Positions 1,063 to 58,694 of a DNA stretch of 64,000 nucleotides are shown here, one piece after another. Positions within the stretch are counted from its first letter, which is position 1; the number at the start of each line of letters is the position of its first letter. The translations under genes and the position numbers were made by a program. The stretch covers positions 2,397-66,396 of the IMG/VR virus record IMGVR_UViG_3300031853_000017. One strand, written 5' to 3'. Origin of the DNA: a virus (taxonomy: Duplodnaviria; Heunggongvirae; Uroviricota; Caudoviricetes). The notes under the pieces are model-generated. The model was not told where the DNA came from. It saw only the letters and a program-made list of their open reading frames with translations, and did not search any database.

Positions 1063-1145
1063 CTAACTGTAGACAACACGGCGGGAGAAATCCCGCCTAC
1101 ATCAAAAAGCAGAACGGTAAACATAAAAAACACAACAAGAAAATC

Positions 1146-3974: not shown

Positions 3975-4192
3975 AGAAATTGAAAGAATTAATTGACAAA
4001 ACATACGATACAGGAAAAATGCCGGTCAAAAATATGTCACTGAACGATTTCCGCTATCTGGAATACATTCATGACGAGCTGATGAAGGGCAACAGGGTTT
4101 ATTACTGTTTTGCTACGGAAATCATCAATCCGATTTTGAAGAAATGCGGAATCGCGTTCAAGCAGCACCACATGGGCTACATTGCCGGTTAA
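3971..4192 (+). CDS. hypothetical protein
   Basis: translationally coupled ORF. Confidence 0.5.
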   Translation: MKKLKELIDKTYDTGKMPVKNMSLNDFRYLEYIHDELMKGNRVYYCFATEIINPILKKCGIAFKQHHMGYIAG

Positions 4193-4221
4193 TCAAATCA
4201 GAATTTTATGGAGGTGATTAC

Positions 4222-4626
4222 ATGAAAAACGATAAATACATTTACATCGGAATTTTTGTTGACTACGATACGTTGCAGAAATTTGTCAACGATAATATCA
4301 CAAAAGACAAATTATCGCGCGTGATTGATAAACCACACGTAACATTCGCATTCAGACCTAAAGAATACAATCCTGATTTAATCGGAAAACTTGTAATGCT
4401 GAAAGTTGTCGGCTACGCTTGCGACGGCAAGAACCAGGGCTTACAGATCGAGATGGACAACACAAGTATTCCCGAAATTTTGGCAGAGTTTAAGAAAATC
4501 AAGAATCCGCATATCACGTTATCGACAAGCGAGGACGGAAAGCCGGTTGACACCGGAAAGATGAAATTCGAGCCGATTGACAATCCGTTCTACATTATGG
4601 GTACATATGACGGCTTTTCAAAGTAA
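4222..4626 (+). CDS. 2H phosphoesterase family protein (LigT / cyclic phosphodiesterase / Acb1-like)
   Basis: Two H-x-T/S-x motifs (HVTFAF, HITLST) about 80 aa apart in a 134-aa protein; GGAGGTG SD. Confidence 0.55.
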   Translation: MKNDKYIYIGIFVDYDTLQKFVNDNITKDKLSRVIDKPHVTFAFRPKEYNPDLIGKLVMLKVVGYACDGKNQGLQIEMDNTSIPEILAEFKKIKNPHITLSTSEDGKPVDTGKMKFEPIDNPFYIMGTYDGFSK

Positions 4627-4752
4627 ACATAAAAAACACAATAACGCTAAAATGCCGAGAATTTGTCTATATCGCATTTTCTCGGCAAGGAATATAATTA
4701 CACTAACATTACATAAAAACGCGATATGAGCGAAAACAAAGGGGTTTATGAC

Positions 4753-5456: not shown

Positions 5457-5485
5457 TTGACATACTGTTATAAGTATGATATAAT
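5457..5485 (+). promoter_or_regulatory. sigma70-like promoter (identical copy 2)
   Basis: TTGACAtactgttataagtatgaTATAAT. Confidence 0.6.
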
Positions 5486-6467: not shown

Positions 6468-6496
6468 TTGACATACTGTTATAAGTATGTTATTAT
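6468..6496 (+). promoter_or_regulatory. sigma70-like promoter (copy 3; -10 TATTAT)
   Basis: TTGACAtactgttataagtatgtTATTAT. Confidence 0.55.
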
Positions 6497-7215: not shown

Positions 7216-7560
7216 GGAAATATATAATTACTATACTTTGATTAAAGTACAGTCAAGAAATACTAAACATCAAAGTATAGTAATTATTAAAATAATAAGG
7301 TATGCTATACATAAGTGATTAGTATAAAGTATAGCTAATCATTTATGTATAGTATATATATATGTTTCCCAAAGGGAAACATATAATATATTATATACGT
7401 TTTTATTGTTATACTATTCTTTATTCCTTAACGTATAGTATATAATATATTATTATATAATGTATTGCTATTCATTAATGTATAGTATAATAAAGAATAG
7501 CTATTCATTAATGAATAGTATATAATATATATATATATATATAAGAGCAATTTCTGACGC
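7216..7560. repeat. AT-rich iteron region (GTATAGTATA-like repeats, palindromes, (TA)n); candidate replication origin or regulatory region
   Basis: At least 6 copies of (A/T)GTATAGTATA(T/A)AAT; perfect palindrome ATGTTTCCCAAAGGGAAACAT at 7362-7382; ATTCATTAATGAAT palindrome; (TA)10 tract. Confidence 0.45.
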
Positions 7561-7766
7561 GGCAATCAATCGAGCGGAATTTTCCTCTATGGTTTTTAAT
7601 CAGATTGATTCCCTTGTCTATGTGCCGTCTTGCGACAACACATAATATATTGTTAAAATCGTTTATTTTGGCTTGTATTGGATTTTTGCTTTAGCAATAT
7701 AATTTCATTACTTTTAGATAAAAATGCGATACAGGCGATTCTGGCTTATTTTAGAGGTGGTTTAGA

Positions 7767-8174: not shown

Positions 8175-8197
8175 TCACAGTAAATATAAAAAAGTTA

Positions 8198-8226
8198 TTG
8201 ACAAATCAAAATCATTGTGATATACT
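8198..8226 (+). promoter_or_regulatory. sigma70-like promoter with upstream AGTAAATATAAAAAAG element
   Basis: TTGACA-17-TATACT. Confidence 0.55.
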
Positions 8227-8267
8227 TGTTATAGTAAAGAAATTACTACAGAAAAGGAGCAACAACA

Positions 8268-8786: not shown

Positions 8787-8832
8787 ACGGTAAACATAAA
8801 AAACACAACAACGAAAGCGAGGTATAAATATT

Positions 8833-12835: not shown

Positions 12836-12855
12836 AAATATTTTTATATTTACCA

Positions 12856-12884: not shown

Positions 12885-13062
12885 TAATTTGTATCAAAGA
12901 TACACCTATAAAGAGTGTGCAAGGGAGCAAGCCCGATGACCGTACACCAACCTACTTTATGCAAGGTGGTAATGCTTGACCGATAGGTTTTTTAATCCTA
13001 TCGGTGACGATAGGGTTTTATCTTTTACGGCTCAAATCTAAAATTTAAAAGGATTTGAAACA

Positions 13063-15509: not shown

Positions 15510-15567
15510 CCTCTGAAACATGGGGTTAAACTTTTGAAAAAAAAATTTCAGTAATTATAAAAAACAT

Positions 15568-15596: not shown

Positions 15597-15643
15597 TATA
15601 ACCATAGTAAATAAGTTACTACAAACATTAAGGAGGAATCACA

Positions 15644-17479
15644 ATGAAAGCAACAATTACAATCAACAACGAAAAGAATGGTATTGAAGTAGCATTTGCC
15701 GCAAAACCGGAAACTGACGTTCTGACCGCGCTGAAAGAAGCCGGATTCCGCTGGCACAGACAGAAGAAAGTATGGTACGCAAAGAACACCGACGAAAGAA
15801 TGACATTCGTTCAGGGTATCGGCGAAGTATCTTCTACTGCCGCGAACGGTAAAGATAAAAAAGTTAATGTCGATTTGTGGGAAATCACCCGCACAGATGA
15901 TATTCCGTATTTCTATGGCGAGAATCACGAACACAGCGCAAAGGTTATCGCTATGAATGTCAGAAAGCACCTCCGCGCGAGATTCCCGTTCTGCAAATGG
16001 TCTGTTACCAGCAGTAGAGATAGCGTCGATGTCAGCTTGCTTAAAAGCCCGTTTGAAAAGGGTAGCGACGAGTTAATGGCAATCGCGGAATATGCGTACC
16101 GTTATACTCAGGCGTATAACTACGATAACAGCGATTCTATGTCTGACTATTTCGACGTAAATTTCTACGGCACTTGCTCCGCTCATTCGATTGTCCATTG
16201 GAATTACGAGCAGACAGAAATGACCGACGAATACGCGGAAATGGCAGAGGTATTCAAGGCTAAGAAGGCGGATTTTGAGAAGGCAGAAGCCGAACGGCAG
16301 GAGCGCGAATCTCAGGAACGCAAGAAGCAGTATGAAATCGAGAAGGCAGAAGCCGAAAAGAGAGCAGAGGAAGAAAAGAGAATCATTGCTGACATCGAAG
16401 CGTCGGCGGTCATTGTGAATGACGTTGATTACACTATCACAAATGCCCGCTTGGTCTGCAACAAGTGCAGCACATTTGAGGATTATTATAATGAGCACGA
16501 AACCAGAGAGGATTGCAAGGTCGCAAGAGAGGTCTATATGACCGCAGAGCAGTATGAGCAGTTTACACATCTTTTTATTTCTGATTTCTCATTCCTTGCG
16601 AGAATGGGCGGCACAAACACAGATGACCGCAGAATCACCGATATGGAAGATTACACCAGAATGTCTAAAGAAGAACGTGAAACAGTCCATTTCTACCGCG
16701 ACAAATGCGTTGCTATCTTTGCCGGCAATGAATTGAAGCTTGCTATTGACCCGCAGGGATTCTCTTATGCAAGATATGTCTATTTGGTTGACGAGCAGAC
16801 GGAGCGCGTCGGTGACTACCATACCGATTATGTAATCAGTGAAGAAGAAGCGGCGGAGAATCGCGCGGCTGCTGAAAAGGTTGAGGAATTTATTTCTGAA
16901 ATCATCAGAGAAAACAACATGATTGGCACATGGGATTCCGAGGATATGGAGAAATTCAGAGAGATTTTTACCGACACCATCAAGGAACGCGGCATTCGTT
17001 TTGATGTCGGTGTCGTCAGAGCGATGGAAAATCTCAGACTGAAATATTCATTGTACAGACTGTTGAATGAGCCTATCCAGATTCGCCGGCAGTTTGACCG
17101 CGCAGGATTTACAGAAGGACAAAAATTGACAATTTTTCAAATTTCGTCTTTTGGAATGTTTACAACGACAAAAGTAAAATTTGACCATTATGAATACGCA
17201 ACATACGCGCAGTATGATAATGCGGTAAAAATGGTTATGGCGTTGCCGAGAAAGCGCGGATTGTATAAAACGTATTTCTATAACGAGGTAATCATCGTTG
17301 ACGGCTGGCAGGATATTCCGCGCGAATTGTTCTTTGAGAGAATCGAGAGTGTGAACGGCGTTATTTGCGAAAAGAGCAGGTTTACCTCTTGCGACAAAGC
17401 TCACTATGAGGTCGTGTTAGACTATTTCAAGAGTCAGGGAATTGAGCCGCTTGTAAACACATTCAAGCCGGTATTCTGA
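15644..17479 (+). CDS. large hypothetical protein (611 aa) with central E/K/R coiled-coil
   Basis: AAGGAGG SD; no catalytic motifs recognised. Confidence 0.6.
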   Translation: MKATITINNEKNGIEVAFAAKPETDVLTALKEAGFRWHRQKKVWYAKNTDERMTFVQGIGEVSSTAANGKDKKVNVDLWEITRTDDIPYFYGENHEHSAKVIAMNVRKHLRARFPFCKWSVTSSRDSVDVSLLKSPFEKGSDELMAIAEYAYRYTQAYNYDNSDSMSDYFDVNFYGTCSAHSIVHWNYEQTEMTDEYAEMAEVFKAKKADFEKAEAERQERESQERKKQYEIEKAEAEKRAEEEKRIIADIEASAVIVNDVDYTITNARLVCNKCSTFEDYYNEHETREDCKVAREVYMTAEQYEQFTHLFISDFSFLARMGGTNTDDRRITDMEDYTRMSKEERETVHFYRDKCVAIFAGNELKLAIDPQGFSYARYVYLVDEQTERVGDYHTDYVISEEEAAENRAAAEKVEEFISEIIRENNMIGTWDSEDMEKFREIFTDTIKERGIRFDVGVVRAMENLRLKYSLYRLLNEPIQIRRQFDRAGFTEGQKLTIFQISSFGMFTTTKVKFDHYEYATYAQYDNAVKMVMALPRKRGLYKTYFYNEVIIVDGWQDIPRELFFERIESVNGVICEKSRFTSCDKAHYEVVLDYFKSQGIEPLVNTFKPVF

Positions 17480-17490
17480 TAGAGGTGAAC

Positions 17491-17877
17491 ATGATATATT
17501 TTTGGATAGATAAAAAGAAATCCAGTGTTTATAATGCAACGGATGAAAACGATATTTCAAATTCGTATTATCCGATTGCTTCTACCGATATGGAAAAACT
17601 TAAAGGAATGATCGCGGAGATTGGCTATAGCACATCTGTAAAAGGGTGTGCTGAAAGCCGTCTTTCGTCGGAAGAAATCAAACATATCGCCTTGTTTTGC
17701 AATATGTATGAGGTAGAGGGAACAAAGGAAATCGGAATCTTTATTAGCATTTCCGACAGCAAAGATTTGATTTTTGTTGGTTATTATCCAGGCATTGAGC
17801 TTGATGACCATAAAAAGATTTTTGAAAAATTCTGTGAGTGGTTAAAAATTAACAGAAAAACGAATAAATATACATAA
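17491..17877 (+). CDS. hypothetical protein
   Basis: AGAGGTG SD + ATG. Confidence 0.5.
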   Translation: MIYFWIDKKKSSVYNATDENDISNSYYPIASTDMEKLKGMIAEIGYSTSVKGCAESRLSSEEIKHIALFCNMYEVEGTKEIGIFISISDSKDLIFVGYYPGIELDDHKKIFEKFCEWLKINRKTNKYT

Positions 17878-17908
17878 ATAACGAATAAATATTCATCAGG
17901 AGGACAAA

Positions 17909-21120: not shown

Positions 21121-21518
21121 AATGAAAGCAAAAGAATATTATGCAAAAATTAAAGAGCAAAATCCTCAGACAGCAGAAGAAATGGCAAATGCCATAGGTG
21201 ATGTTGTTGATGGTCTGAACAACGAAGCTAAAAGTTAATCAAAAAACGCCATGTTACTCGTGGTGATGGTTACCGAGCAATTATCCGCGAACTCAATAAC
21301 AAATGGAATGCCATTGCCACGCTGTTTGAAAAAGATTACGGTATGTCGCCTATTTCACGCAACCGGTTTTTAGAATTGTGGACAGAGAAAATTCCAGAGC
21401 TTGCTCCCGATTGCGGAAAACCTGCCGCAGATGATTCTAATAGGGTTGTTTTTGACCTTGATAATCCGAATTGTTTGACGACTTTGGCTATGCTTGGCAG
21501 CGCCGCGTTTGGAAAATA
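21121..21518 (+). pseudogene. disrupted gene: three consecutive reading-frame segments (21121-21201, 21182-21238, 21232-21518)
   Basis: Protein-like translation continues across a +1 then -1 frame change; last segment lacks a start codon. Confidence 0.3.
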
Positions 21519-21582
21519 ATGAATAAATATTCATAATAATGTATAAATATACACTTTGAAACGAAAAGAAAGGATTTCACGA

Positions 21583-22084: not shown

Positions 22085-22279
22085 TTGGAAGTGCCGACCT
22101 GTAAAGACTGTTTGCATATTGACGCTTGCAAAAACGCAATCAGAGAGTTATTCCCAATGTTGAAAATAAATGGGAAACTCACTCACAATATTATTGATGA
22201 ATTTGGCGATTATAAAGTCAATAGCTGCAAATCTTTTGTTTCCAGCAAAGAATATGCTATTATGCGACGCGAAAAATAA
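22085..22279 (+). CDS. Cys-rich small protein
   Basis: GGGGGATTGGAAGTG alt start. Confidence 0.45.
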   Translation: MEVPTCKDCLHIDACKNAIRELFPMLKINGKLTHNIIDEFGDYKVNSCKSFVSSKEYAIMRREK

Positions 22280-22293
22280 ATATAAAAATTTTT

Positions 22294-22322
22294 ATAATTA
22301 CTATTGACTCTTGGCGCGGGTT
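22294..22322 (+). promoter_or_regulatory. sigma70-like promoter (TTGACT)
   Basis: TTGACT-17-TATAAT. Confidence 0.5.
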
Positions 22323-22358
22323 GTGCTATAATAATTATAGTAAATAAATTACTACGAG

Positions 22359-23321
22359 GTGACTATTATGAAAACCAATACAATGACAATTTCATCTCCG
22401 TTATTATTTGGCAATATGACGTTTACGGCGGAAGTTCCCGCGCAGAGTCAGCCGAAACTCAAAAAGGACGGAATGCCTAAAATCATCGTGCAGAACAAGA
22501 AGCGCGGAAGAAAATCCGAGGTCTATCCGATTCAGGTGTCTGACATTCGCCGCTTTATGGATTGGTTCGAGAGCAACAAGAAATGGGAATGTTATCTTAT
22601 TTTCGTTATCTCTTGTAATCTTGCCCGCAGAATCGGCGATACGCTTTCCTTACAGTGGAAACATTTCTATGACACTAAAACAGGCAGATTCCGCAAAGAT
22701 TTGCTTGAAATCATCGAGGATAAAACCGACAAACTCGCAAATCCGCACATTAACACGGCTGTTAAAAATGCAATCGTGAAGTATCTTGCCGAAACCAACG
22801 TTGACCCATCTGAAAACAATTACGAGAACTATGTTTTTACTCAGGTGAGCGGAAACTATAAGGGCAGAGTAATGACCGCAGACGGTTATCGCAAATGCTT
22901 GAAAAAGGCTGCTGTTGCGCTCGGAATTGATTACAATGTCGGAACTCACAGCACAAGAAAAACGTTCGGTATGCTGTCCCGTATGCTCCATGCAGGAGAT
23001 TATGATAGCATGGCTCTGCTTGGCGTTATCTATAACCACAGAGATGAAAAGACGACAAGAAGATACACCGGCTTGACAAAGCAGAAGGTTGACACATATT
23101 TTGACGATATGGGAACATTCTTTGACGATTATGTAACTGGCGGAAAAACCTTTACAGAAGTTGCGGAAACTCCCGTCGTTCACATTGATGTCAACGATTT
23201 GCGCGATATTATCAAAATGGCTTATACTGCCGGCGCAGAAAATTCAACCACAAATGACCCAACGGTTCACATTGACGCAATCAATGAAATCTGGGCTATG
23301 ATTGACGGATTAAAGAAATGA
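22359..23321 (+). CDS. int: tyrosine site-specific recombinase/integrase
   Basis: ARRIGD (box I Arg), HSTRKTFG (HxxR), TTRRYTG (catalytic Tyr) motifs. Confidence 0.7.
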   Translation: MTIMKTNTMTISSPLLFGNMTFTAEVPAQSQPKLKKDGMPKIIVQNKKRGRKSEVYPIQVSDIRRFMDWFESNKKWECYLIFVISCNLARRIGDTLSLQWKHFYDTKTGRFRKDLLEIIEDKTDKLANPHINTAVKNAIVKYLAETNVDPSENNYENYVFTQVSGNYKGRVMTADGYRKCLKKAAVALGIDYNVGTHSTRKTFGMLSRMLHAGDYDSMALLGVIYNHRDEKTTRRYTGLTKQKVDTYFDDMGTFFDDYVTGGKTFTEVAETPVVHIDVNDLRDIIKMAYTAGAENSTTNDPTVHIDAINEIWAMIDGLKK

Positions 23322-23504: not shown

Positions 23505-23714
23505 AGGCATACCGAAGTCGGAAACAATATGGGTTCAGACGACCGCTGCGGACGGAACAGTCTACTACACGACGGCAAAGACAAACAACAGGGAATTTTA
23601 TTTTCTGTATAAGATGGTAGACGGAAAAGCCGTTAAGCTCGGAAAAGCGCGGAATCCCAAAGACCTCGATGATAAATATATTTTATAAAAACAAAAATAA
23701 ATATAAAAAACACA

Positions 23715-23743: not shown

Positions 23744-23892
23744 ATATTTACAAGGTAATTAAGTAGCCAATAGGCTGGAAGGGATGTGTTGAGAAGAAAA
23801 AAATCGAGTAACTACAATTTAATATTCACACTACTGGTATGAATCCAGCCTATTGCGTTACATATTCCATAATATAAGGTAGGTGCGGATTT

Positions 23893-24261
23893 ATGCTGAA
23901 ACAAAAACCACATTTTGGCGAAATCTGGATGTGCCATTTGACTGATAGGAGTGGCAGCGTTCAGAGCGGTTATAGACCTGTGTTCGTCATTTCCAACGAC
24001 AAAAATAATACATACAGTAACACGTTTAACATCATTCCTATTACGTCAAAGTTTAACAAAAGGAATTTACCGGTTCATGTGGTGCTGCTAAATTATTGGG
24101 TATATGGTTTGAGAGAACCAAGTACAATATTGGTGGGGCAGACAACAACCGTCGGGATTAACTGTCTTGACAAAAGAATCGGAAAAATTATTGATAGGAA
24201 CATCTTGCTTGAAATAAGTAAGGCTATGATGATTCAATTTCCCATCTTTTCTTTGAGTTAA
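23893..24261 (+). CDS. MazF/PemK-family endoribonuclease toxin-like protein
   Basis: PHFGEIWMCHL...G.RPVFVIS...IIPITS pattern typical of MazF/PemK/Kid. Confidence 0.6.
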   Translation: MLKQKPHFGEIWMCHLTDRSGSVQSGYRPVFVISNDKNNTYSNTFNIIPITSKFNKRNLPVHVVLLNYWVYGLREPSTILVGQTTTVGINCLDKRIGKIIDRNILLEISKAMMIQFPIFSLS

Positions 24262-24276
24262 ATAAATATAAAAATA

Positions 24277-24305
24277 TTGACAAAAACCGAGAATGCTGTT
24301 ATAAT
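24277..24305 (+). promoter_or_regulatory. sigma70-like promoter
   Basis: TTGACA-17-TATAAT. Confidence 0.55.
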
Positions 24306-25355: not shown

Positions 25356-25432
25356 TTGGGCTGCCGTTTGGCAGCCTATATCAAAGAATAGAACAGTAAA
25401 CAAAAAAAACATAATAAGCAGAGGATAGAAAA

Positions 25433-26071
25433 TTGGGATATTATGTTATGACGGATGGCAATGACACATTCATAACACTCGACAAAAGCACAAATAAATA
25501 TGTTCCAATCAAAGGAGAGAAATATGCCTTTAGGTGGGACGACAGACAAAAGGCTGTCAACATACATAAAAGCTCTTTATCTAAAAAGATTAGACCCATG
25601 TATTCCGTTGAATATCGCAATGAAAGTGACGCGATCGTAAATAAAAAGAATCTTGAACAGCAAAATCTAATAACCTCAGAAAAATTTGAAGAAAATGCTA
25701 TTGATAAACTCGAAGCAATGCTTCAAAGTGTAGTAACCATAATCGGGGGAGTTGACGAACGATTTGACGAACTATCCAGCAAATTAAGTGTTGTGGATAA
25801 GAAGATTGTTGATATTGAACATTTCATTGAGTTTGGAAAATTTAATTGTTATCAAGGTTGGATTTGCTTTAAGATTTTACAAAATTTATTACAGCAGCGC
25901 CGGCAGTACAAGAACGAAATGGAAGTGATCGGAAAAATCAGAGGTTGCAAGATTGAGAGCAAAGAGGTTGATATACTGAAAGCAAGCATTGAGCAGATCA
26001 AATTCAAGAAATACACACCGAGAGCGTTCAAAGAATTGTTCAATGGGTATTGTAATCAGAGTAGTGAATAA
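25433..26071 (+). CDS. hypothetical coiled-coil protein
   Basis: ORF after AGTAAACAAAAAAAAC motif. Confidence 0.55.
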   Translation: MGYYVMTDGNDTFITLDKSTNKYVPIKGEKYAFRWDDRQKAVNIHKSSLSKKIRPMYSVEYRNESDAIVNKKNLEQQNLITSEKFEENAIDKLEAMLQSVVTIIGGVDERFDELSSKLSVVDKKIVDIEHFIEFGKFNCYQGWICFKILQNLLQQRRQYKNEMEVIGKIRGCKIESKEVDILKASIEQIKFKKYTPRAFKELFNGYCNQSSE

Positions 26072-26901: not shown

Positions 26902-27267
26902 ATGAGAGATAATAAACTTGGCTGTTTAGGATTTGTGTTGGTTGTTTTCTTGATAATAGGCGTAATTATTTTTAGTGCGTCTGCAAGCTATAACGAGCAC
27001 ACTTATACAGTTACAATCACAGACAAAGAACGTGTCTATGATAAAGATAGCAGTAAGTATTTGGTTTTCGGAGAAGATGTCGAAACCGGAGAAACAAGAG
27101 TATTTCAAAATACCGATTCGTTTTTTAGAGGAAAATTTGATAGCTCAAATGTCTATGGGAGTTTGAAAAAGGGAGAAACCTATACGGTTACTGTTGTTGG
27201 GTATAGAATCCCACTGTTTAGTTGGTATGAAAATATTATCAAATACGAAAAGGAGAGCAATAAATGA
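26902..27267 (+). CDS. membrane-anchored protein
   Basis: AGGAGG SD + ATG; N-terminal TM. Confidence 0.5.
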   Translation: MRDNKLGCLGFVLVVFLIIGVIIFSASASYNEHTYTVTITDKERVYDKDSSKYLVFGEDVETGETRVFQNTDSFFRGKFDSSNVYGSLKKGETYTVTVVGYRIPLFSWYENIIKYEKESNK

Positions 27268-27809
27268 AGAAACTACTGGTCTTAGTAGATTTTCAAAATG
27301 ATTTTATTGACGGTGCGCTCGGAACACCGGAAGCTATGGCAATCGTGCCGAATGTTATCAAGAAAGTAAAAGAATGGGACGGCGATATTTGGTTTACCGC
27401 AGATACACATAATACAAACTACTTAAATACAAATGAGGGTAAGCACCTTCCCGTTCCTCATTGTATCAGAGATACCGAAGGTTGGGAGTTACAGAAAGAC
27501 GTTGCAGAAATTCTCAGAGAGAAAATGTCACAAGAAGAATTTGAGCAAAATACATTTATTAAATATACATTTGGTTCTGAGAGATTGTGTTTGAGCATTA
27601 AGTTGTTACAATATGATTATGTTGAGTTTATTGGGCTTTGCACCGACATCTGTGTTGCAAGTAATGCAATTATGTTAAAGGCATTTATGCCTGAAACTCA
27701 GATTGCAGTTGACCCCTCATGTTGCGCCGGCGTAACTCCTGAAACTCACGAAGCGGCATTAACTACAATGAAAATGTGCCAGATTGATATTTTGGAGGTA
27801 GTAAAGTGA
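27264..27809 (+). CDS. isochorismatase-family cysteine hydrolase (nicotinamidase PncA-like)
   Basis: VLVDFQNDF (Asp), GLCTDICVASN (catalytic Cys) motifs; ATGA overlap with upstream gene. Confidence 0.65.
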   Translation: MKKLLVLVDFQNDFIDGALGTPEAMAIVPNVIKKVKEWDGDIWFTADTHNTNYLNTNEGKHLPVPHCIRDTEGWELQKDVAEILREKMSQEEFEQNTFIKYTFGSERLCLSIKLLQYDYVEFIGLCTDICVASNAIMLKAFMPETQIAVDPSCCAGVTPETHEAALTTMKMCQIDILEVVK

Positions 27810-28663
27810 TTCAAGTAAACCGCAAAACTGTTGAATTATCACGTTTTCCAGACGGAACACTTCATCTTGTTCCCGAAATTGATTTATCAAGTGCAGAATA
27901 TCACATTACAATTTCGTGGTATTATGAAGATGATAGTGAAATGGCAGCGTTACTGTTTTTGACAAGGTATTTCAAGGAAAATGGCTTTGAAGTTATTCTG
28001 TTCATGCCATATATCCCAAACGCAAGAATGGATAGGGTTAAAAATGAGAATGATGTTTTCACGCTCAAATATTTTGCGGACTTCATCAATTCACTTCATT
28101 TTTCTCTCGTTATAGTTCTCGACCCACATTCAGCTGTTAGTGAAGCCTTAATTAATAATATTATTGTTTTCACTCCTATTGATTACATAGAAAAAGCATT
28201 TGAAAGAGTCAATAAAGAAACGAATGGGGAAATCATTGCATTTTATCCCGATGAAGGCGCAATGAAACGATATTCCGAAATCATTGATTGCCCGTATGCG
28301 TTTGGAGTTAAAAGGCGCGATTGGTCTACCGGAAAAATTCTCGGATTGGACATTATCGGCGATGAAAACTATTTGCGCGGGAAAAATATAATCATTATTG
28401 ATGACATTAGCAGCAAGGGCGGTACATTCTATCATTCAGCAAAGAAACTCAAAGAGGTTGGCGTAAACAAAATTTTCCTCTATGTTACTCATTGTGAGAA
28501 AACAATATTAGAGGGGGAAGTGTTTACAAGTGGGTTGATCGACAAGGTATTTACAACAAATTCTATCTTTACTCCTGCCGCGCTTGAAACGGCAAAAAGT
28601 AAAGGTTTATCGGATAAAATTGAGGTGTTTGAAATTGAAAACGAATCCTATGCTACTGATTGA
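27806..28663 (+). CDS. ribose-phosphate pyrophosphokinase (Prs)-like protein; candidate ADPR-PP synthetase (Adps) of NARP1
   Basis: PYIPNARMDR (Prs PYxxYARQDR-like) and IIIDDISSKGGT PRPP-binding motif; overlaps flanking genes (coupled). Confidence 0.7.
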   Translation: MIQVNRKTVELSRFPDGTLHLVPEIDLSSAEYHITISWYYEDDSEMAALLFLTRYFKENGFEVILFMPYIPNARMDRVKNENDVFTLKYFADFINSLHFSLVIVLDPHSAVSEALINNIIVFTPIDYIEKAFERVNKETNGEIIAFYPDEGAMKRYSEIIDCPYAFGVKRRDWSTGKILGLDIIGDENYLRGKNIIIIDDISSKGGTFYHSAKKLKEVGVNKIFLYVTHCEKTILEGEVFTSGLIDKVFTTNSIFTPAALETAKSKGLSDKIEVFEIENESYATD

Positions 28664-30104
28664 TTTTTATAAGGCTGTTCATGCGGAAATGTTGCCGCAG
28701 AATATCACAAAATCAGTATCTTATTTTACACCACGCATGAGCCGCGTTAAGCGTTGGGATAAGGTTGTGATGTTTGGATTGCAAGGTTTTATCAAGGAAT
28801 ATCTAATTGATTTTTTCAATGATAATTTCTTCAATGTCCCGCTCGAAACCGTTATGGGCGAATACACAAGAATCATGGACAACACGCTTGGCAAAAATGC
28901 TTATAATCCAAAGAAGATTGAGAATTTACACAATCTTGGATATTTGCCGATTGAGATTGTAGCATTACCAGAGGGAACGCTTGTGCCTATGCACGTTCCG
29001 ATGTTCGGGATTACTAATACCCACAAGGATTTTGCGTGGCTTCCGCAGTCGCTTGAGTCTTTGATCTCGGCAGAAATGTGGCATCCGATGCTTGCGGCGA
29101 ATGTCGGTTATACATACCGTCAGATTGTCAACAAGTATTATGACGAAACCTGTGATGATAACATTCCACGAGCAAAAGCACTTGGAGCGTTTGATTTCCG
29201 TGGTGAGGAATGTTTGCAGAGCGCGACAAAGGCTGGCGCGGGTTGGCTGTTATCTTTCTTGAATACCGCAACGGTTCCGGCAATTCCGTACCTTGAAAAT
29301 TATTACAACTGTGATTGCACAAAAGAGCCTGTCGGTTTTGGTTCACCATCCACGGAACATTCCGTTATGTGTAGCAATTTCGCGGTTGACGGAGATGAAA
29401 TCACGCTGCTCCGCAGATTGTTGACAGAAATTTATCCGAACACTTCTTTCTCGGCGGTGCTTGACAGCTACGATTATTGGAATGTCATTGACAATATCCT
29501 TCCTCAGTTAAAGCCTGAAATTCTCGCACATAATGGCTGTATGCTCATGCGCGGAGATAGCGGCGATTGCATTGAGGTCGTAACCAAGACGGTATTTAAG
29601 TTGTGGGATATTTTCGGTGGCACGGTCAATAGCAAGGGTTATAAGGTACTTGACCCGCATGTTAAAGCTATTTACGGCGATTCTATCACTGTGCAGCGTT
29701 GCGAGATAATCTATGAAATCCTCAAAGAAAATGGATTTGCTTGCTCAAATGTTGCACTCGGCGTTGGTTCATTCTCATTCCAGTGCATTGAAGAAGATGG
29801 AATATTGAAGCCGTTCACACGCGACACGTTCAGTTCTTGCATTAAGGCTACTTATTGTGAGATTGATGATAAGCCTGTTCCGATTTTCAAGAATCCAAAA
29901 GATGGCGGATTTAAGAAATCTCAAAAGGGTTGTTGTGTTGTTTATAAATTTATGAACAACATTGTTTATAAGGACGAATATACTTGGAAAGAGGCAAACG
30001 AATTACCCTATCAGTTGCTTGAAACCGTATTTAAGGATGGAAAAATCGTTAAAGAGCAAACGCTTTCAGAAGTGCGCTCAGTATTGCACGGAGGTAAGTT
30101 TTAA
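28650..30104 (+). CDS. NAMPT-family phosphoribosyltransferase; candidate Namat of NARP1
   Basis: Colinear similarity to NAMPT: LLIDFYKAVH, LPIEIVALPEG, NSKGYKVLDP...GDS, conserved His in HSVM. Confidence 0.75.
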   Translation: MLLIDFYKAVHAEMLPQNITKSVSYFTPRMSRVKRWDKVVMFGLQGFIKEYLIDFFNDNFFNVPLETVMGEYTRIMDNTLGKNAYNPKKIENLHNLGYLPIEIVALPEGTLVPMHVPMFGITNTHKDFAWLPQSLESLISAEMWHPMLAANVGYTYRQIVNKYYDETCDDNIPRAKALGAFDFRGEECLQSATKAGAGWLLSFLNTATVPAIPYLENYYNCDCTKEPVGFGSPSTEHSVMCSNFAVDGDEITLLRRLLTEIYPNTSFSAVLDSYDYWNVIDNILPQLKPEILAHNGCMLMRGDSGDCIEVVTKTVFKLWDIFGGTVNSKGYKVLDPHVKAIYGDSITVQRCEIIYEILKENGFACSNVALGVGSFSFQCIEEDGILKPFTRDTFSSCIKATYCEIDDKPVPIFKNPKDGGFKKSQKGCCVVYKFMNNIVYKDEYTWKEANELPYQLLETVFKDGKIVKEQTLSEVRSVLHGGKF

Positions 30105-30892
30105 TGGGATTCAATGCAAATAAAGTTAAAGACGATATTGTTGTCTGGATTCGCAAGATGTTTGAAGAAAACGGTAAAGGTTGTAATGCAGTTATCGGAA
30201 TCTCAGGCGGCAAAGACTCAAGCGTAACCGCCGCATTATGCGTTGCTGCTTTAGGCAAAGATAGAGTAATCGGCGTTCTTATGCCAAATGGTAAGCAAGA
30301 GGATAAAAACGTTGCAGTTGAATTGTGTAACCATTTAGGCATTAACCATATCGAGATAAATGTCAAAAATGCGTTTGATTCCATTTTGGAGCAGATTGAC
30401 GAAATTTATATTTCAAAAGTGGATTCTTATATCCCGATTTCTATTTCCGATCAAACCACTATCAACCTTCCTCCGAGATTGCGCATGGCTACGTTATATG
30501 CAGTATCTCAATCTGTTGGTGGTCGTGTCATGAACACTTGTAATCTATCAGAGGATTATGTTGGATATGCGACCAGATACGGCGATTCTGCCGGAGATTT
30601 TGCACCTTTGGCTAATCTGACATCTGATGAAGTTATCGCGGTTGGTGCTGCTTGCGGACTACCAAATTCATTCATCTATAAAACTCCGTCAGATGGGCTT
30701 TGCGGCAAAACTGACGAAGATAATCTTGGGTTTACCTATAAAGTTCTTAATAAGTATATTAGGACTGGTATTTGTGAAGATAGCAAGATCAAGGAAAGAA
30801 TTGTCGCTATGCACAAGAAGAATAGGTTTAAGTTGCAGCCTATGCCGGCATTTCCATACAATGCCGGAAATGGAAGAAATAAACTACGATAA
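30104..30892 (+). CDS. nadE: NH3-dependent NAD+ synthetase (NadE)
   Basis: PP-loop GISGGKDSS; C-terminal similarity to NadE; TAATG overlap. Confidence 0.75.
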   Translation: MGFNANKVKDDIVVWIRKMFEENGKGCNAVIGISGGKDSSVTAALCVAALGKDRVIGVLMPNGKQEDKNVAVELCNHLGINHIEINVKNAFDSILEQIDEIYISKVDSYIPISISDQTTINLPPRLRMATLYAVSQSVGGRVMNTCNLSEDYVGYATRYGDSAGDFAPLANLTSDEVIAVGAACGLPNSFIYKTPSDGLCGKTDEDNLGFTYKVLNKYIRTGICEDSKIKERIVAMHKKNRFKLQPMPAFPYNAGNGRNKLR

Positions 30893-30931
30893 ATAAATCA
30901 AAAATAAATATAAAAAACTTTATAAAAACCG

Positions 30932-30960
30932 TTGACAAACGGAAAAATATGTGATATACT
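30932..30960 (+). promoter_or_regulatory. sigma70-like promoter followed by ~290-nt structured leader
   Basis: TTGACA-17-TATACT; hairpins CATCTCCCTTCAAAGGAGATAG and CCACAGGTGAAAGTCCTGTGG. Confidence 0.5.
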
Positions 30961-31253
30961 ATAAGAGAAGTCAGGAGATAACACCTTGACTTAAAAAATT
31001 CTCTTGTAAAGTAAACATAAAAAACATAATTAAATAATCGTAAGTAGTGAGTATAGAGCCTTTTGAAAAATAGCGAAACATCATTAGAATAATTAGTTCA
31101 TCTCCCTTCAAAGGAGATAGTCTTGGTTAAAGTCCGAGGTGTTGTTTCAAAGTTTGGATAAAGAAAAAGATAACATCGCGCGGGTTATCTCCCACAGGTG
31201 AAAGTCCTGTGGCTTACGTTGATATAGATATTACATTACAAAGGGAGTTACAA

Positions 31254-33813: not shown

Positions 33814-34216
33814 GGGGCTGAAATAGATTCGACAGGGCACAGAAAACATATAACTTCGCAGGAATGTAACATCCTTAAAGTACACCTTAAAAAATAAACG
33901 ACACTACTGTTGTTACACTTCATCCCGCGCTTTTAGCAGTTCTCGGTCAGAGAGCCGTAGCGTGAGATTCCGATAAGTACCTGCTATTCGGTCTAACTTG
34001 TCGGACGGAAATAGAATAGCAACCAATGGTTTCTTACTTCCGCAAAAAGTAAGTGGTGGAGTGGGTGTAAATCTTTACATCTCCATTCGTTTCCCGCGAA
34101 TTAAAACAAAGTTGTGGTTTGCAGGTTTCCACGGAGAAAAATCGGCTATTGCGTAAGAAAAGTTAGTGTGAGTATGTGTTTTGGACACGGAGGGCAGTTC
34201 TCCGTCAGCTCCACCA
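33814..34216 (+). ncRNA. ssrA: tmRNA (ssrA)
   Basis: 5' GGGGCTGAAATAGATTCGACAGGG matches tmRNA 5' consensus; 3' GGACACGGAGGGCAGTTCTCCGTCAGCTCCACCA matches tmRNA T-arm/acceptor/CCA; ends pair. Confidence 0.7.
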
Positions 34217-37521: not shown

Positions 37522-37648
37522 TGGGATGTAGCTCAGTTGGTTAGAGCAACGTAAAAATACAAAAGGTGTTTTGTAAAAGCACTTGCAGCAATTTTAACGT
37601 AAAGCATGTTAAGCCGTAGGTCGCAGGTTCGAGTCCTGCCATCCCAGC
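37522..37648 (+). ncRNA. tRNA-like element B: Ala/Val-type acceptor+D-arm, ~55-nt insertion replacing anticodon loop
   Basis: TGGGATGTAGCTCAGTTGGTTAGAGC...; 10-bp helix ACGTAAAAAT/ATTTTAACGT encloses ACAAAAGGTGTTTTGT hairpin and CTTGCAGCAATTTTA; T-arm GCAGGTTCGAGTCCTGC. Confidence 0.4.
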
Positions 37649-37653
37649 CTATA

Positions 37654-37758
37654 TGCGGGTGTAGCTCAGTTGGTAGAGCGTATAAATATAATGTTTTGCG
37701 AAAACATTAACAGCAATTTTATTATAATGTCAGCAGTTTAAATCTGTTCGCCCGCACC
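37654..37758 (+). ncRNA. tRNA-like element C with 29-36-nt insertion in anticodon region
   Basis: GCGGGTGTAGCTCAGTTGGTAGAGC; stem TATAA/TTATA; insert AATGTTTTGCGAAAACATT hairpin + AACAGCAATTTTA; T-arm AGCAGTTTAAATCTGTT; acceptor CGCCCGC. Confidence 0.4.
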
Positions 37759-37945: not shown

Positions 37946-38077
37946 GGTGGCGTAGCTCAGTTGGTAGAGCGGTTTTACTTTTCTATTCCCGTGTCTTAGA
38001 GAGTCACGCACAGCAACTTTACAGAATTATGCTTTAGGAGCAGCGTGTCGCAGGTTCAAGTCCTGTCGTCACCCCCC
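37946..38077 (+). ncRNA. tRNA-like element E with ~60-nt insertion (motif CACAGCAACTTTAC)
   Basis: GGTGGCGTAGCTCAGTTGGTAGAGC ... T-arm GCAGGTTCAAGTCCTGT, acceptor CGTCACC. Confidence 0.4.
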
Positions 38078-38178
38078 AACATCTTGCGCAAACAGCAATT
38101 TTACATTTACATCAAACTTTTAATTTGACACGTAGGTAAGCGTAAGGAAAAAATATTACAGTAAATATAAAAAACTTA

Positions 38179-38207: not shown

Positions 38208-38285
38208 AAGATTGTCAATTAAGGAAAGCCGCTTTTCAGCGGAAAAACTTAAAGCAAAGAACAGTAAACATAAAAAAGTTAATAT

Positions 38286-54261: not shown

Positions 54262-56302
54262 TGATATTAAAAAACTGATTACAAGATTAAACAAATACCG
54301 CGATTTCTACTATAACAAAAACGAAAGTTTAATTACAGATATGGAATACGATAAACTTTATGACCAACTTGTGCAACTCGAAGAAGAAACTGGAATTATT
54401 CTGTCAAATTCTCCTACGCAAAATGCGGGATATACGGTTGTGAGCGGATTGAAAAAAGTTAAGCATAACCACCCATTGTTGTCTTTGGATAAAACCACAG
54501 ATGAAAAGGAATTTATAAAGTTTTTCGGTACAAAAGATTGTTTGCTTATGGCTAAACTCGATGGATTGACTTGCTCGTTATATTATAATAACGGAAAGTT
54601 AATCCGCGCTGAAACTCGTGGTGATGGCGAAACGGGAGAAGATATTACAAACAACGCAAGAGCTTTTTCCAATATCCCACTAACCATTGATTATCAAGGA
54701 GAATTGATTGTTGATGGAGAATGTATCATCACTCAGGAAGATTTCGCAAAAATCAATAATCCTATGATTCTCAAAGCAGTAGATGAGGCAAAAGCAAAAG
54801 GCTTATCTGGTGATAGTCTTGATGTATATGTACGCAAACATTCATTCGCTAATCCGCGCAATCTTGTGAGTGGTACTGTCCGGCAGCTCAATAGCCAGAT
54901 AGTCAAAGATAGGAATGTTAAATTTATTGCGTGGAAACTCTATCATATAGATAAAGACATTAATTCACAGATTTATAGGTTGGAAAAATTATCTCAATTA
55001 GGGTTTGATGTTGTACCTAAATATTACGCGCGGAATGAATCAAATCCATTAAGCAAATCTTTTAATGGAGGAATTGATTTCATTAAATTATACTGCGAAG
55101 TAGAGAATATTCCTATTGATGGATTAGTTGGAATGTTTGACGATGTTAAATATGGTGAATCGCTCGGAATGACAGGTCATCACCCACGACATTCTCTTGC
55201 TTTCAAATTTTATCAAGATGAAAATGAAACCATATTGAGAAATATTGAATGGAATACAAGTAGAACAGGATTAGTAAATCCGGTTGCAATTTTTGACCCC
55301 GTTGAAATTGATGGCACGATTGTTGCCCGTGCAACACTTAATAACGTGAGCATAATTAAGGAATTGGAACTTGGAATCGGAGATACAATTACAGTTATCA
55401 AATCTAATCAGATAATTCCTATGATTACTCAGAATTTGACGAGAAGCAATACATACCAGATTCCGAAGGTTTGTCCTTCTTGCGGAAAACCAACTGCTAT
55501 CAAAAATGATAACGGCAGAGAAATGCTTTATTGCCAAAATCCAGATTGTAAAGCTATTCTGCATGATAAAATTGCAAACTATGCAAGCAGAAATGCTATG
55601 AATATCGTCGGCATTTCCGATGAAAGATTAAAAGCGCTTATTAATAACGGATTTGTCCGCCGCTTCAAAGATTTGTATTATTTGGATTCGCATAGGTCGG
55701 AAATTGAGAAATTGCCGGGATTTGGCAAAACAATAGTGAATAATATCATCAAATCGGTAAACGAAAGCCGCAAGTGTAAACTATCCAATGTGATTGTTGC
55801 GATTGGTATTCCAAATATCGGTAAATCAACGGCAAGAACTATCGCGGAGTATTGCGAGAAAAACTATACAGATAGTGATGGCACCTTGCTTGATACATTT
55901 TTATCTTTGGTTGAATGGAGAGAAAATTGGAGCAAACTTCCGGCTATTGGTGAAACAACAAGTGATTTGATTGATAATTATGTCAATGCACATATGAGTG
56001 AAATAGCTTCTTTGATTAAAGAGTTAGATATTCAATTTGAATTTTCCAATAGTTCCAATTCTGCTGTTTTTGCCGGAAAAAGCTTTTGCATTACAGGTAA
56101 ATTAACGGTGTTTGAAAACCGCAATGCGCTTGTAAAAGATATTGAAAGCAAGGGCGGTAAAGTTGTTTCTTCCGTGACAGCCAAAACAGACTATTTGATA
56201 ACAAATGATAAAACGTCTGGAAGTTCAAAAAATAAAGCAGCCGCGAAGTATGGAACAAAGATAATTGATGAAGAAGATTACATCAAAAATAATTTACAGT
56301 AA
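54247..56302 (+). CDS. ligA: NAD+-dependent DNA ligase LigA
   Basis: KLDGLT (KxDG adenylation), Zn finger CPSCGK...C..C, HhH region, C-terminal BRCT; AAAGGAG SD. Confidence 0.8.
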
Positions 56303-56316
56303 ATATAAAAATCTTA

Positions 56317-56658: not shown

Positions 56659-56813
56659 GCAGTAAACATAAAAAACAACATAAGCAGATAAATCAAATAT
56701 TATTTTTATTGTACATTATATGTCTTAATTACCCATCTTTCTGATTTTCTTATGTAATAAATTATTCTTTCGTTAAATTTTAACTCCGAAACTTTGAGGG
56801 TTATTCGTGTTAA

Positions 56814-58694
56814 AACGACGATAAAAATAATAATTCAAAGCCACGCGGATATGAACTTACTAATTTTTGTGAATTTGATAAATTTGCCACAACAAGTTAT
56901 TGTGCGATTCATGGCGTAGATGAAAGTCTGAATCTCGGCGATATTACACAAGTTGATGAAACAAAAATAAAGCCATTCACAATGATTTGTGGCGGTTCTC
57001 CGTGTCAAGATTTTAGCGTTGCCGGAAATCAAGCTGGTAGTAAATGGAAATGCTCGGATTGTGGTTGCGAATACAATCCATTAACCGTGCATTATTCAGA
57101 ACGACATAAATGCCCACAGTGCGGAAGTGAAAATATTGATAAAACACGCAGTTCTTTATTGGTTGAATGGTTGCGCGTCATTCGCGCAAATAAGCCAAAG
57201 TGGGGGATTTATGAAAACGTTAAAAACATCGTCGGAAAAAGATTCAAGGAAACATTTCAAATGTTTATTGATGAATTGCACGAATACGGTTACAACACGT
57301 ATTATCAAGTTTTGAACGCCAAGGATTACGGAATCCCTCAAAATCGTGAGCGTGTTTATTTAATTATCATTCTTAAAGAATTGGATAATGGAAAGTTCAA
57401 ATTCCCAAAAGGTTTTGATAACGGCAAACGCCTCAAAGATATGCTTGAAGATGAAGTTGATGAAAAATACTACATTAACACGCCCAGAGCAAAAGAATTA
57501 ATTGATGATTTAATTCGCAGCGGCAAGTTAGATAAGGAATACTCTAACACCGTAAGGAGCGGGGGAGAGGAAGCATAGACAGGCACCAATGGGATGTTAT
57601 TCAGACATAACCTGTCTATTATCCAATCAGTGTGGTTATTTTGATAAAGAAACTGATGTTGCCAACACTTTATGTGCAAGAGATTACAAAGGATTTGGCA
57701 ATCAGCAAATGAATGGAGTTATAACAAAACTTGAATAAGCAGCGAATAATTAGATTGGCTCATAAGGGTTCGGGGGACAAAAAGGTTGGATTTATTCTAT
57801 ATTCGGAATCATATCCACGCTTCCAGCAAGCCAATATAAAGACCCTTCATTGATTGTGGTTTATGATGAAAGAAATTGCGACCACAATCACCGAACAGAC
57901 AGGCAATGTCGTTAAACTTGGCAATGTATATGGTGATTATTCAGGAATGAATTATGCCGGCAACGTGTGGGATGTAAACTATTTTTGTCCGACAATACGA
58001 ACGTGTCAAGGCGGCGGCAATCAGCCAATGATTATAGTGAGTGAAAGAAATGATAATATTAATCGGCGGTTTACAGAAAAATCAAGCCATTAAAACTGAT
58101 GGGATATGCACTACGCTTACATCATCAATGGGAATGGGCGGGGGTATATTCCGTTGGTTATAAAAATTGAGAAAGATGAAACAAATGCAAATCACGAGGT
58201 AATAGATGGACGTTAAGCATACGGAAATTCCCTGCTTTTATGATGACCGAGATAAGGGCTGGGGGGAGAAAACAACAGATTATTGTCCCACACAAAGAGC
58301 AAGTAGGAGTGGAATAAAAATGATAGATAATTCTTCTGTTGGTTATCGTATTAGAAAACTATCTCCGAAAGAGTGTTTTCGACTGATGGGATTTTCTGAT
58401 GACCAATTTGAAAGAGCGCAAAAAGCATTGAATGATAAATTTTACAATGGCAAAGACAGGGCAAATTCACAACTTTACAAACAGGCTGGAAACTCTATTG
58501 TTACAGATGTTTTATTTTACATATTTTATGAGCTTTATCAAGCAATGCCATATTTATTTGATGACCTAAAAGTTAGTAGTTATTTTTCTGGTATTGGGGC
58601 ATTTGAAGTCGCGCTCGACAGATTATTTGATACGATAAATGGCTCTAATCAAAGTAACACTGTTCCCGCAGCGTTCGGGGGAGAAATACAGTAG
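56814..58694 (+). pseudogene. fragmented multispecific-type DNA C5-cytosine methyltransferase (motif I absent; pieces in 3 frames)
   Basis: Motifs IV GGSPCQDFSVAG, VI ENV, VIII QNRERV (56814-57578); three TRD-like segments at 57607-57739, 57854-58093, 58092-58165; motif IX/X KQAGNSIV (58206-58694); frame switch at G5 57560-57564. Confidence 0.5.

Follow-up and report, generated by a model that had tools for sequence, protein, structure and literature searches.

A recurring A-rich element of early phage promoters with a layout like that of the SPβ operator SPBRE

Background

SPBRE, the operator of the SPβ master repressor MrpR (also called YopR), has been defined by ChAP-seq, EMSA, and lacZ fusions; MrpR has a tyrosine-recombinase fold, and SPBRE had long been predicted to be a regulatory site (PMC10516654). 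In scans of SPβ and of the SPβ-like Bacillus phage SPR, the SPBRE core is ACAAAAAATATGTA and its copies are co-oriented with the genes. Copies lie 8 nt upstream of the −35 hexamer (yonX, aimR, and spr_90 of SPR), inside promoter spacers (yorE, yorZ, yosX, and yonP), and in leaders, with the Shine-Dalgarno sequence directly after them (yopM, yopV, and the second copies of yonX and spr_90), and a pair flanks the promoter of the SPR homologue of the LPD29 gene discussed below. The yopM-yopR operon, which encodes MrpR, carries an SPBRE, and the copy at the yonP promoter is immediately upstream of yonO. Transcription by the polymerase YonO begins at a single site, that of one late operon (PMC5467207). 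A scan of the yonK upstream region for SPBRE found no copy.

UP elements are read by the alpha-CTD of RNA polymerase at −59 to −38, and the consensus of the proximal subsite is AAAAAARNR. Protein p4 of phi29 uses A-tract sites upstream of sigmaA promoters, where it contacts the alpha-CTD, represses early promoters, and activates late promoters. In the rrn leader, boxB is followed by boxA. In the PeSL cassettes of T4-like phages, which occupy regions of small ORFs, a near-consensus early promoter comes after a stem-loop (PMC2839356, PMC4122927).

The window and its phage

The window is the whole 64,000-nt stretch of DNA that was analysed. Nearly all of its long ORFs are on the + strand, and its GC content is 34-46%, mostly about 38%. 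The source is an uncultured large gut phage that probably has Ruminococcus bromii as its host; a Ruminococcus bromii MAG encodes a protein 99% identical to a recombinase-like protein of the window. Homologues of the LPD29 protein (15644-17479) number in the hundreds, and relatives identified by this protein were found in MAGs of Ruminococcus, Anaerofustis, and other Clostridia and on contigs mostly of 130-170 kb. A megablast search with 15 kb of the window matched no cultured phage, a search based on the DNA ligase found no relatives, an exact 15-mer scan of IMG/VR gave single chance matches only, and the LPD29 profile found only four weak loci in metagenomes.

The window contains at least 18 tRNA genes, a tmRNA, a SAM riboswitch, NAD-salvage genes, a DNA ligase gene, a clamp-like gene, and a Thg1-like gene. 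The tmRNA gene (33814-34216; Rfam RF00023, 60.7 bits) is in the tRNA region. Three Rfam tRNA matches of 102-129 nt (37522-37647, 37655-37756, and 37946-38074), with repeat family D12 inside, were missed by ARAGORN and may be tRNA genes with insertions or introns. The NAD-reconstitution cluster at 27264-30892, with isochorismatase, PRPP-synthetase-like, NAMPT-like, and NadE genes, is probably an anti-defence module; its isochorismatase is nicotinamidase-like by homology to gene calls in the relatives L121 and L125. A C5 cytosine DNA methylase, 36% identical to MtbP of SPβ, is split into an N-terminal ORF (56982-57578) and a C-terminal ORF (58206-58694) by an insert of about 630 nt; the region is at 5200-7050 on contigs L152-L154. 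The content of this insert differs between near-identical contigs, one of which has an HNH endonuclease, and it is probably a mobile intron or a homing-endonuclease insertion. An ORF-free AT-rich region (7216-7766) has three 34-nt repeats, TATAAAGTATAGCTAATCATTTATGTATAGTATA, at 7323-7522 and a terminator-like hairpin at 7359-7385, and may be an origin or a regulatory region; the contig of the relatives L119 and L173 has a different AT-rich repeat region at its divergence point. Two tandem copies of a 21-nt unit, AAATAA[CT]GAATAAATATTCAT, precede the Shine-Dalgarno sequence of ORF 17909 (17855-17896), and a third (21514-21534) is about 20 nt before the TTG start of ORF 21556.

With one mismatch allowed, 13 promoters on the + strand fit TTGACA-17-TATAAT, 12 of them with TG at −15/−14, and early transcription is therefore attributed to a host sigmaA-type polymerase. 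No sigma or RNA polymerase gene was found in the window, and among about 50 window ORFs no gp55-like or sigma-like protein was detected by Pfam. Promoters 1034-1062, 5457-5485, and 6468-6496 share a near-identical spacer with the palindrome CATACTGTTATAAGTATG, suggestive of a separate operator within the promoter itself, and the motif described below is absent upstream of all three. Another element, ATAGTAAA[TG]AA[AG]TTACTAC, has inverted AGTAA/TTACT arms, is at the predicted start of several early transcripts (8228-8250, 15601-15623, and 22336-22356), and could be an operator or a 5' RNA hairpin. It also occurs in L124, L125, L130, and L132 and, unlike the upstream motif, is near identical in relatives at 44-50% protein identity.

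The motif and its copies

A recurring 16-base A-rich motif in this window is real, strongly non-random, and evolutionarily maintained. Allowing one mismatch, its 13-nt core, GTAAAYATAAAAA, matches at 20 places where 1.15 would be expected, and 17 of the 20 are on the gene strand; the 16-mer AGTAAACATAAAAAAC has 17 matches with at most three mismatches, all 17 on the + strand, against 2.67 expected from shuffles. The window version is AGTAAAYATAAAAAAC and is mostly asymmetric; three copies of the 16-mer are perfect, and copy-to-copy identity is very high. The forward copies comprise nine that stand alone and eight that are fused to promoters. Position 7 is C in eight of eight stand-alone copies and in none of the eight fused ones, which have T, and is G in the copy inside an ORF at 15848. 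The split holds in the window only, as the relative L121 has a stand-alone copy with the T variant (20460).

An initial annotation had listed eight stand-alone and eight fused copies. All of these are present, the former within 2 nt and the latter within about 14 nt of the positions given, but the list of stand-alone copies omitted a ninth, the one inside the ORF at 15848. The same annotation put the stand-alone copies 20-60 nt upstream of genes or RNAs, and the measured distance from the end of the motif to the next gene or RNA is instead 7 to about 305 nt. The positional bias that it reported stands: the motif is a strand-biased, intergenic, transcription-associated signal that is specific to the phage.

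The fused copies are all upstream of promoters of the type TTGACA-17-TATAAT or TTGACA-17-TATACT with TG at −15/−14, the single different −35 being the TTGACT at 22304. Five of them, on the + strand like all forward copies, end 3 nt before a TTGACA: 8179-8194 (TTGACA at 8198), 15550-15565 (15569), 23696-23711 (23715), 38160-38175 (38179), and 56298-56313 (56317). The copy at 15550 is preceded, at about 18-21 nt, by a hairpin with a T-run. The copy at 24261-24276 abuts the TTGACA at 24277, with its core 2 nt away, and the copy at 30903-30918 is 13 nt from the TTGACA at 30932, one helical turn further out. Measured from the core, five promoters have a gap of 5 nt to the −35, one has 2 nt, and two have 15 nt; the two main classes (5 and 15 nt) are about one helical turn apart. 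Compared with the others, the fused copies at 22275 and 30903 are 10 bp more distant from the −35 and that at 24261 is 3 bp nearer, which corrects the earlier description of the fused copies as immediately upstream of the −35. A long, structured-looking leader (23744-23892) separates promoter 23715 from a PemK-like toxin ORF (23893-24261; Pfam match on the L121 and L125 homologues) and could be an RNA antitoxin or a regulatory RNA.

Two inverted copies are an addition to the earlier description and are new here. Both are on the − strand and 2 nt from a −35, one at 22289-22301 (GTAATTATAAAAA) at promoter 22304 of the recombinase-like gene and the other at 12841-12853 (GTAAATATAAAAA) at promoter 12856 of the SAM-riboswitch operon. 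Together with forward copies upstream they make palindromes of the type ATAAATATAAAAA/TTTTTATAATTAC; at 22304, the forward arm of this head-to-head palindrome is the fused copy at 22275-22290. A third inverted copy is found in the relative L152 (17571). Inverted copies that abut the −35 fit a protein on duplex DNA, not a promoter or an RNA signal. The SAM riboswitch itself (12903-13016; Rfam RF00162, 49.5 bits) is downstream of promoter 12856 with a terminator at 12994-13017, and its leader sequence also occurs in L119, L121, L124, and L125.

The stand-alone copies are in leaders, between genes, and in one case within a gene. Seven of the 13 strong window promoters have a co-oriented stand-alone copy downstream, as does one promoter upstream of the window start, on contig L244. 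In the leaders of promoters 1034, 30932, and 38179 the downstream copy is at about +43 to +49, past a GC-rich hairpin and a spacer of 16-20 nt. The copy at 1116-1131 (GGTAAACATAAAAAAC) is at about +47 from promoter 1034, 18 nt past the hairpin at 1080-1097 and 29 nt before the ATG at 1161; the copy at 31010-31025 is 18 nt past the hairpin at 30969-30991 and 51 nt before a tRNA gene with anticodon TCA; and the copy at 38263-38278 is 20 nt past the hairpin at 38229-38242 and 7 nt before a tRNA-Leu gene. The tRNA with anticodon TCA (31077-31148) was called tRNA-SeC by ARAGORN and is possibly a UGA suppressor. Promoters 8198, 24277, and 56317 have the downstream copy past the first gene; for the first this is the copy at 8789-8804, which is kept in L121 with a different upstream flank, and for the last it is the copy at 56661-56676, 2 nt past the stop codon. 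At promoter 15569 the downstream copy is within the first gene, in a variable linker of LPD29 (15848-15863, GGTAAAGATAAAAAAG, about +244). The copy at 1801-1816 (GGTAAACAAAAAAAGG) is 2 nt past the stop codon of ORF 1517-1798, the TAA of the copy at 4622-4637 (AGTAAACATAAAAAAC) is the stop codon of ORF 4144-4626, and the copy at 25395-25410 follows the hairpin at 25359-25376 and is 22 nt before the TTG start at 25433. The end of contig L244 (1-170), about 2.5 kb before the window begins, is made of GC-rich direct repeats about 60 nt long, in contrast to the phage's GC content of about 38%; a genome terminus, an attachment junction, and an assembly artefact are possible explanations. After the repeats come a promoter, a leader of about 250 nt, and a stand-alone copy (L244 549).

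None of the nine stand-alone copies is followed by a sigma70 core (−35/−10), because space and consensus are both lacking. Past the motif at 1116, 8789, 25395, and 38263, the following start codon or tRNA begins after 7-30 nt, and in L119 start codons are only 12-20 nt past the motif with a Shine-Dalgarno sequence in between; because start codons are 12-30 nt away, a usable core promoter after the stand-alone copies is excluded. The sequences GAAC (ECF-like), CATA (sporulation sigma), and AACA-N6-TW (AR9) are known promoter consensus sequences, and neither these nor a −35/−10 pair around the motif gave a consistent fit across copies. A leaderless transcript from the GATATT at 25437 was ruled out because the N-terminus of the protein is conserved from the TTG at 25433.

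If the motif itself were a phage-specific core promoter of the middle class, transcription would start inside it or at its 3' edge, and the fused copies would be tandem phage and host promoters. The contiguous block of 16-25 nt with three perfect 16-mers, the strict co-orientation with genes, the stand-alone copies ahead of genes and tRNAs with no sigma70 promoter between, and an L119 copy (18585) that comes after a tRNA and a hairpin with a T-run are all consistent with this reading. It leaves the fixed 5/15-nt register with the −35 unexplained, however, and the inverted copies would fire antisense where there are no genes on that strand. On balance a core promoter is unlikely.

Hairpins precede many copies at approximate distances of 16-20 nt from the GC-rich stem cores, or 7-25 nt from the extended stems, in a folding scan; a constant distance was rejected, and the hairpin loops are not conserved. 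The operons with a downstream copy are the long ones, up to 18 kb, and those lacking a copy have a terminator end or a riboswitch terminator. A signal that is read during transcription, such as a nut/boxA-like or ops-like antitermination loading site or an RNA processing site, would fit the length of these operons and the eight promoters (seven of 13 in the window and the one on L244) with a co-oriented copy downstream, and the order of promoter, hairpin, about 18 nt, and motif recalls the boxB-boxA order of rrn leaders. Against it, fused copies are upstream of the −35 in a fixed register, inverted copies exist, the hairpin loops diverge, and the motif RNA would be unstructured. The motif also varies by lineage, in contrast to the conserved boxA of hosts, and comparison with nut/boxA sites did not place it among them. 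An RNA-level signal is thus very unlikely.

Conservation in relatives

In the close relatives L121 (85%) and L122 and L123 (about 90%), both fused and stand-alone copies are kept and their flanks have diverged. Relatives at 44-50% protein identity have a different motif sequence in the same contexts and at orthologous sites. The version in L119, L173, and L194 is AAGAAATNNCTCGAAAAG, with a gap of 1-3 nt to TTGACA when fused; that in L124 and L125 is AGAAATAATWTTGAGAAAM, with a gap of 3-4 or 13 nt; and that in L130 and L132 is AAAATAATTTAGAAAAA, with a gap of 2-4 nt. L126, of the P0068 lineage, was left out of the comparison as its architecture differs. Every variant lineage has copies off promoters, either stand-alone or in an ORF, except L132, which is a 2.4-kb contig. 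The 13-nt gap class recurs at the orthologous promoters of the recombinase-like gene and of the riboswitch operon. L194 has the full composite of fused copy, promoter, hairpin, 18 nt, stand-alone copy, and Shine-Dalgarno sequence.

Two sites are informative in more than one lineage. Ahead of the gene at 25433, the stand-alone site and its hairpin are retained at the orthologous position in five related loci, with compensatory changes in two pairs of the hairpin; L121 has the window version there, L125 and L130 have their own versions, and the L124 copy is degenerate. The in-ORF copy is in the same variable LPD29 linker, just before the conserved L[WF]E[IM]TRT[DE], in at least three lineages. 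It has zero substitutions across the window, L122, and L123 while flanking codons vary, and the linker matches the lineage's own motif perfectly in L119 and at 15 of 19 positions in L124. All copies, G/C positions included, change in concert, which indicates recognition by a factor that is not the same in every lineage and argues against generic A-tract reading. Concerted change and retention in a coding linker also offer a computational handle on the binding protein, as protein variation can be compared with motif version.

The same comparison bears on whether the motif is only a UP element for the host alpha-CTD, or curved A-tract DNA, within promoter cassettes spread by recombination, with the stand-alone copies as functionless remnants. 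The fused copies reach from about −54 to −39, and in most of them the A6 tract occupies about −45 to −40, close to the proximal UP subsite; a second A/T block is present at about −57 to −48 in all lineages; and the order of hairpin, about 18 nt, motif, and promoter resembles the PeSL terminator-promoter cassettes (PMC4122927). Remnants would not be kept at orthologous sites at 44-50% protein identity while tracking the G/C positions of each lineage, nor would the copy in LPD29 stay unsubstituted, and the nearby start codons leave the stand-alone copies no core promoter to assist. Use as a UP element, which the initial annotation had also suggested, suits the fused copies, which occupy the UP position, and fails for the stand-alone ones. 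As the sole function of the motif, passive A-tract reading is quite unlikely.

Candidate binding protein and the YonO homologue

The conserved ORF at 22368-23321 is tyrosine-recombinase-like (Pfam PF00589, E = 3.9e-12), with the catalytic R-K-HxxR-H-Y set apparently intact. Because the strongest, palindromic motif site is on its own promoter, this ORF is a candidate for the binding factor, and autoregulation through that site is possible by analogy with the SPβ yopM-yopR operon. It is not recognizable as an MrpR homologue: BLASTP against YopR gave E = 0.75, which is no similarity, a search of PDB sequences gave one weak integrase match, and Foldseek with the AlphaFold model gave only weak matches to generic recombinases. 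About 3.0-4.2 kb past the window end (L152 15250-16440), an ImmA-like metalloprotease and an XRE HTH repressor are encoded on the minus strand, with divergent promoters that have their own palindromic operators, AAGAAAAT-N7-ATTTTCTT. The presence of these two genes in the lineage of the window suggests a temperate-type (lysogeny-type) switch. The XRE repressor was rejected as the factor, its operators being different in sequence from the motif.

The contig of L119 and L173, a relative at 44% identity, encodes a YonO homologue of 941 aa (L173 4912-7734; BLASTP E = 6e-27) with the DxDGD motif (DKDGD), and the family is therefore SPβ-like in its transcription strategy. The YonO-like gene is on the opposite arm of that contig, preceded by a motif-fused promoter that points the same way as the arm. 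Recognition of the motif as a core promoter, either by host RNA polymerase with a phage factor or by the YonO-type polymerase of the family, is improbable. The homologue is present in the family, and the motif drifts between lineages as polymerase-promoter pairs do; against this, no sigma or polymerase gene was detected in the window, and the motif is in the early region and also ahead of the operon of the YonO-like gene itself. In SPβ, YonO uses one late start (PMC5467207), so by analogy a many-copy element of the early region is unlikely to be a YonO promoter; the SPBRE scan also found no copy upstream of yonK.

Outside this polymerase, the window LPD29 protein is 35% identical to its homologue in SPR. 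Only three window ORFs, those for LPD29 and the two methylase fragments, have homologues in the searched parts of SPβ and SPR, and the analogy with SPβ is therefore one of position and not of homology between the elements.

A model for the motif

The reading that we tentatively prefer is that the motif is a lineage-specific protein-binding DNA control element of early host-sigmaA-type promoters, which works like SPBRE or like an operator in the UP position. An operator-like element with auxiliary downstream sites is favoured by the fixed register to the −35, by the presence of inverted and palindromic copies, by spacing classes about one helical turn apart, and by the precedent of SPβ. A putative phage-encoded factor would recognise the motif as duplex DNA. 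At an upstream copy, which occupies the UP zone (about −54 to −39), keeps register with the −35, and can face either way, this factor may modulate RNA polymerase; given core promoters that are near-perfect already, repression or timed shut-off would be likelier than activation. Downstream copies may be auxiliary operators, acting by looping or cooperative binding, or roadblocks.

Some features sit less easily with an operator. The asymmetry of the motif and its strict co-orientation with genes are more typical of promoters or transcribed-strand signals than of dimeric operators, the A-tract could be read by host alpha-CTD alone with no bound phage factor, and antitermination or secondary promoters would also suit the presence of downstream copies in the long operons. 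In a further reading, which we consider highly doubtful, a phage factor would have a pair of coupled roles, tuning host polymerase at the UP position and, at the downstream copies, stalling or being captured by elongating polymerase. The downstream copies, mostly 16-20 nt past a hairpin with no U-tract, would then be protein-switched attenuators (roadblock-assisted termination) or ops/Q-like loading sites, and the site would decide the read-through of long early operons, including tRNA arrays.

Returning to an operator-like control element, the motif would define the early-gene regulon of a widespread uncultured phage family, with genomes of about 130-170 kb, that infects gut and rumen Clostridia, and it offers a case for how one short site acts both beside and downstream of promoters.

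Comparison with known systems

The initial annotation had noted a resemblance to T4 late promoters, which have the sequence TATAAATA and are associated with gp55. The motif is AT-rich, and fused copies have the partial match TATAAAAA; however, no copy has an exact TATAAATA, the region is early and driven by host promoters, the motif is phase-locked to a sigma70-type −35 and inverted at two promoters, and no gp55-like protein was found. A T4-type late promoter is not supported. The p4 sites of phi29 are similar in having A-tracts upstream of sigmaA promoters but differ in being inverted repeats of one regulatory region and not a genome-wide family.

Similarity to UP elements extends to the position of the fused copies, the A-tract, helical phasing, and association with very strong promoters, and in the window and in relatives alike the fused copies place an A/T-rich block at −38 to −59 in register with the −35. 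A UP element is always part of a promoter, whereas nine copies of the motif stand alone without a sigma70 core; identical copies are in leaders and inside an ORF, and the motif has conserved, lineage-specific positions that are not A/T. PeSL cassettes resemble this locus in their repeated pairing of stem-loop and early promoter amid small ORFs, and a hairpin is 7-25 nt upstream of many motif copies. Here, however, the repeated unit is the upstream element and not the whole promoter, spacers differ between most copies (they are near-identical only in promoters 1034, 5457, and 6468), many copies have no promoter, and the promoterless copies are conserved across lineages.

SPBRE is the closest match in layout. 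Both elements have about 10-20 copies of 15-16 bp that are A-rich, confined to the phage, and co-oriented with genes; both are found at a set distance ahead of the −35, in leaders where the Shine-Dalgarno sequence follows, and paired on either side of a promoter; and both are at the promoter of an LPD29 homologue (SPR for SPBRE) and at a promoter just upstream of a YonO polymerase gene. The multi-copy distribution at early sigmaA promoters, co-oriented and both upstream and downstream, is that of an SPBRE-type operator. The sequences are unrelated, since SPBRE (ACAAAAAATATGTAT) is an imperfect palindrome and the window motif (AGTAAAYATAAAAAAC) is asymmetric, not palindromic, and does not match the SPBRE consensus. 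SPBRE is often in the promoter spacer, where the window motif is never seen, and its binding by MrpR is experimentally proven, while the motif here is a site predicted from sequence. With a YonO-type polymerase, an LPD29 gene, and a repeated promoter element, the phage family shares the architecture of SPβ. The motif, with its inferred mechanism, belongs best with the repeated operators or promoter-associated elements known from large Firmicute phages, a kind typified by SPBRE, and it overlaps the UP position.
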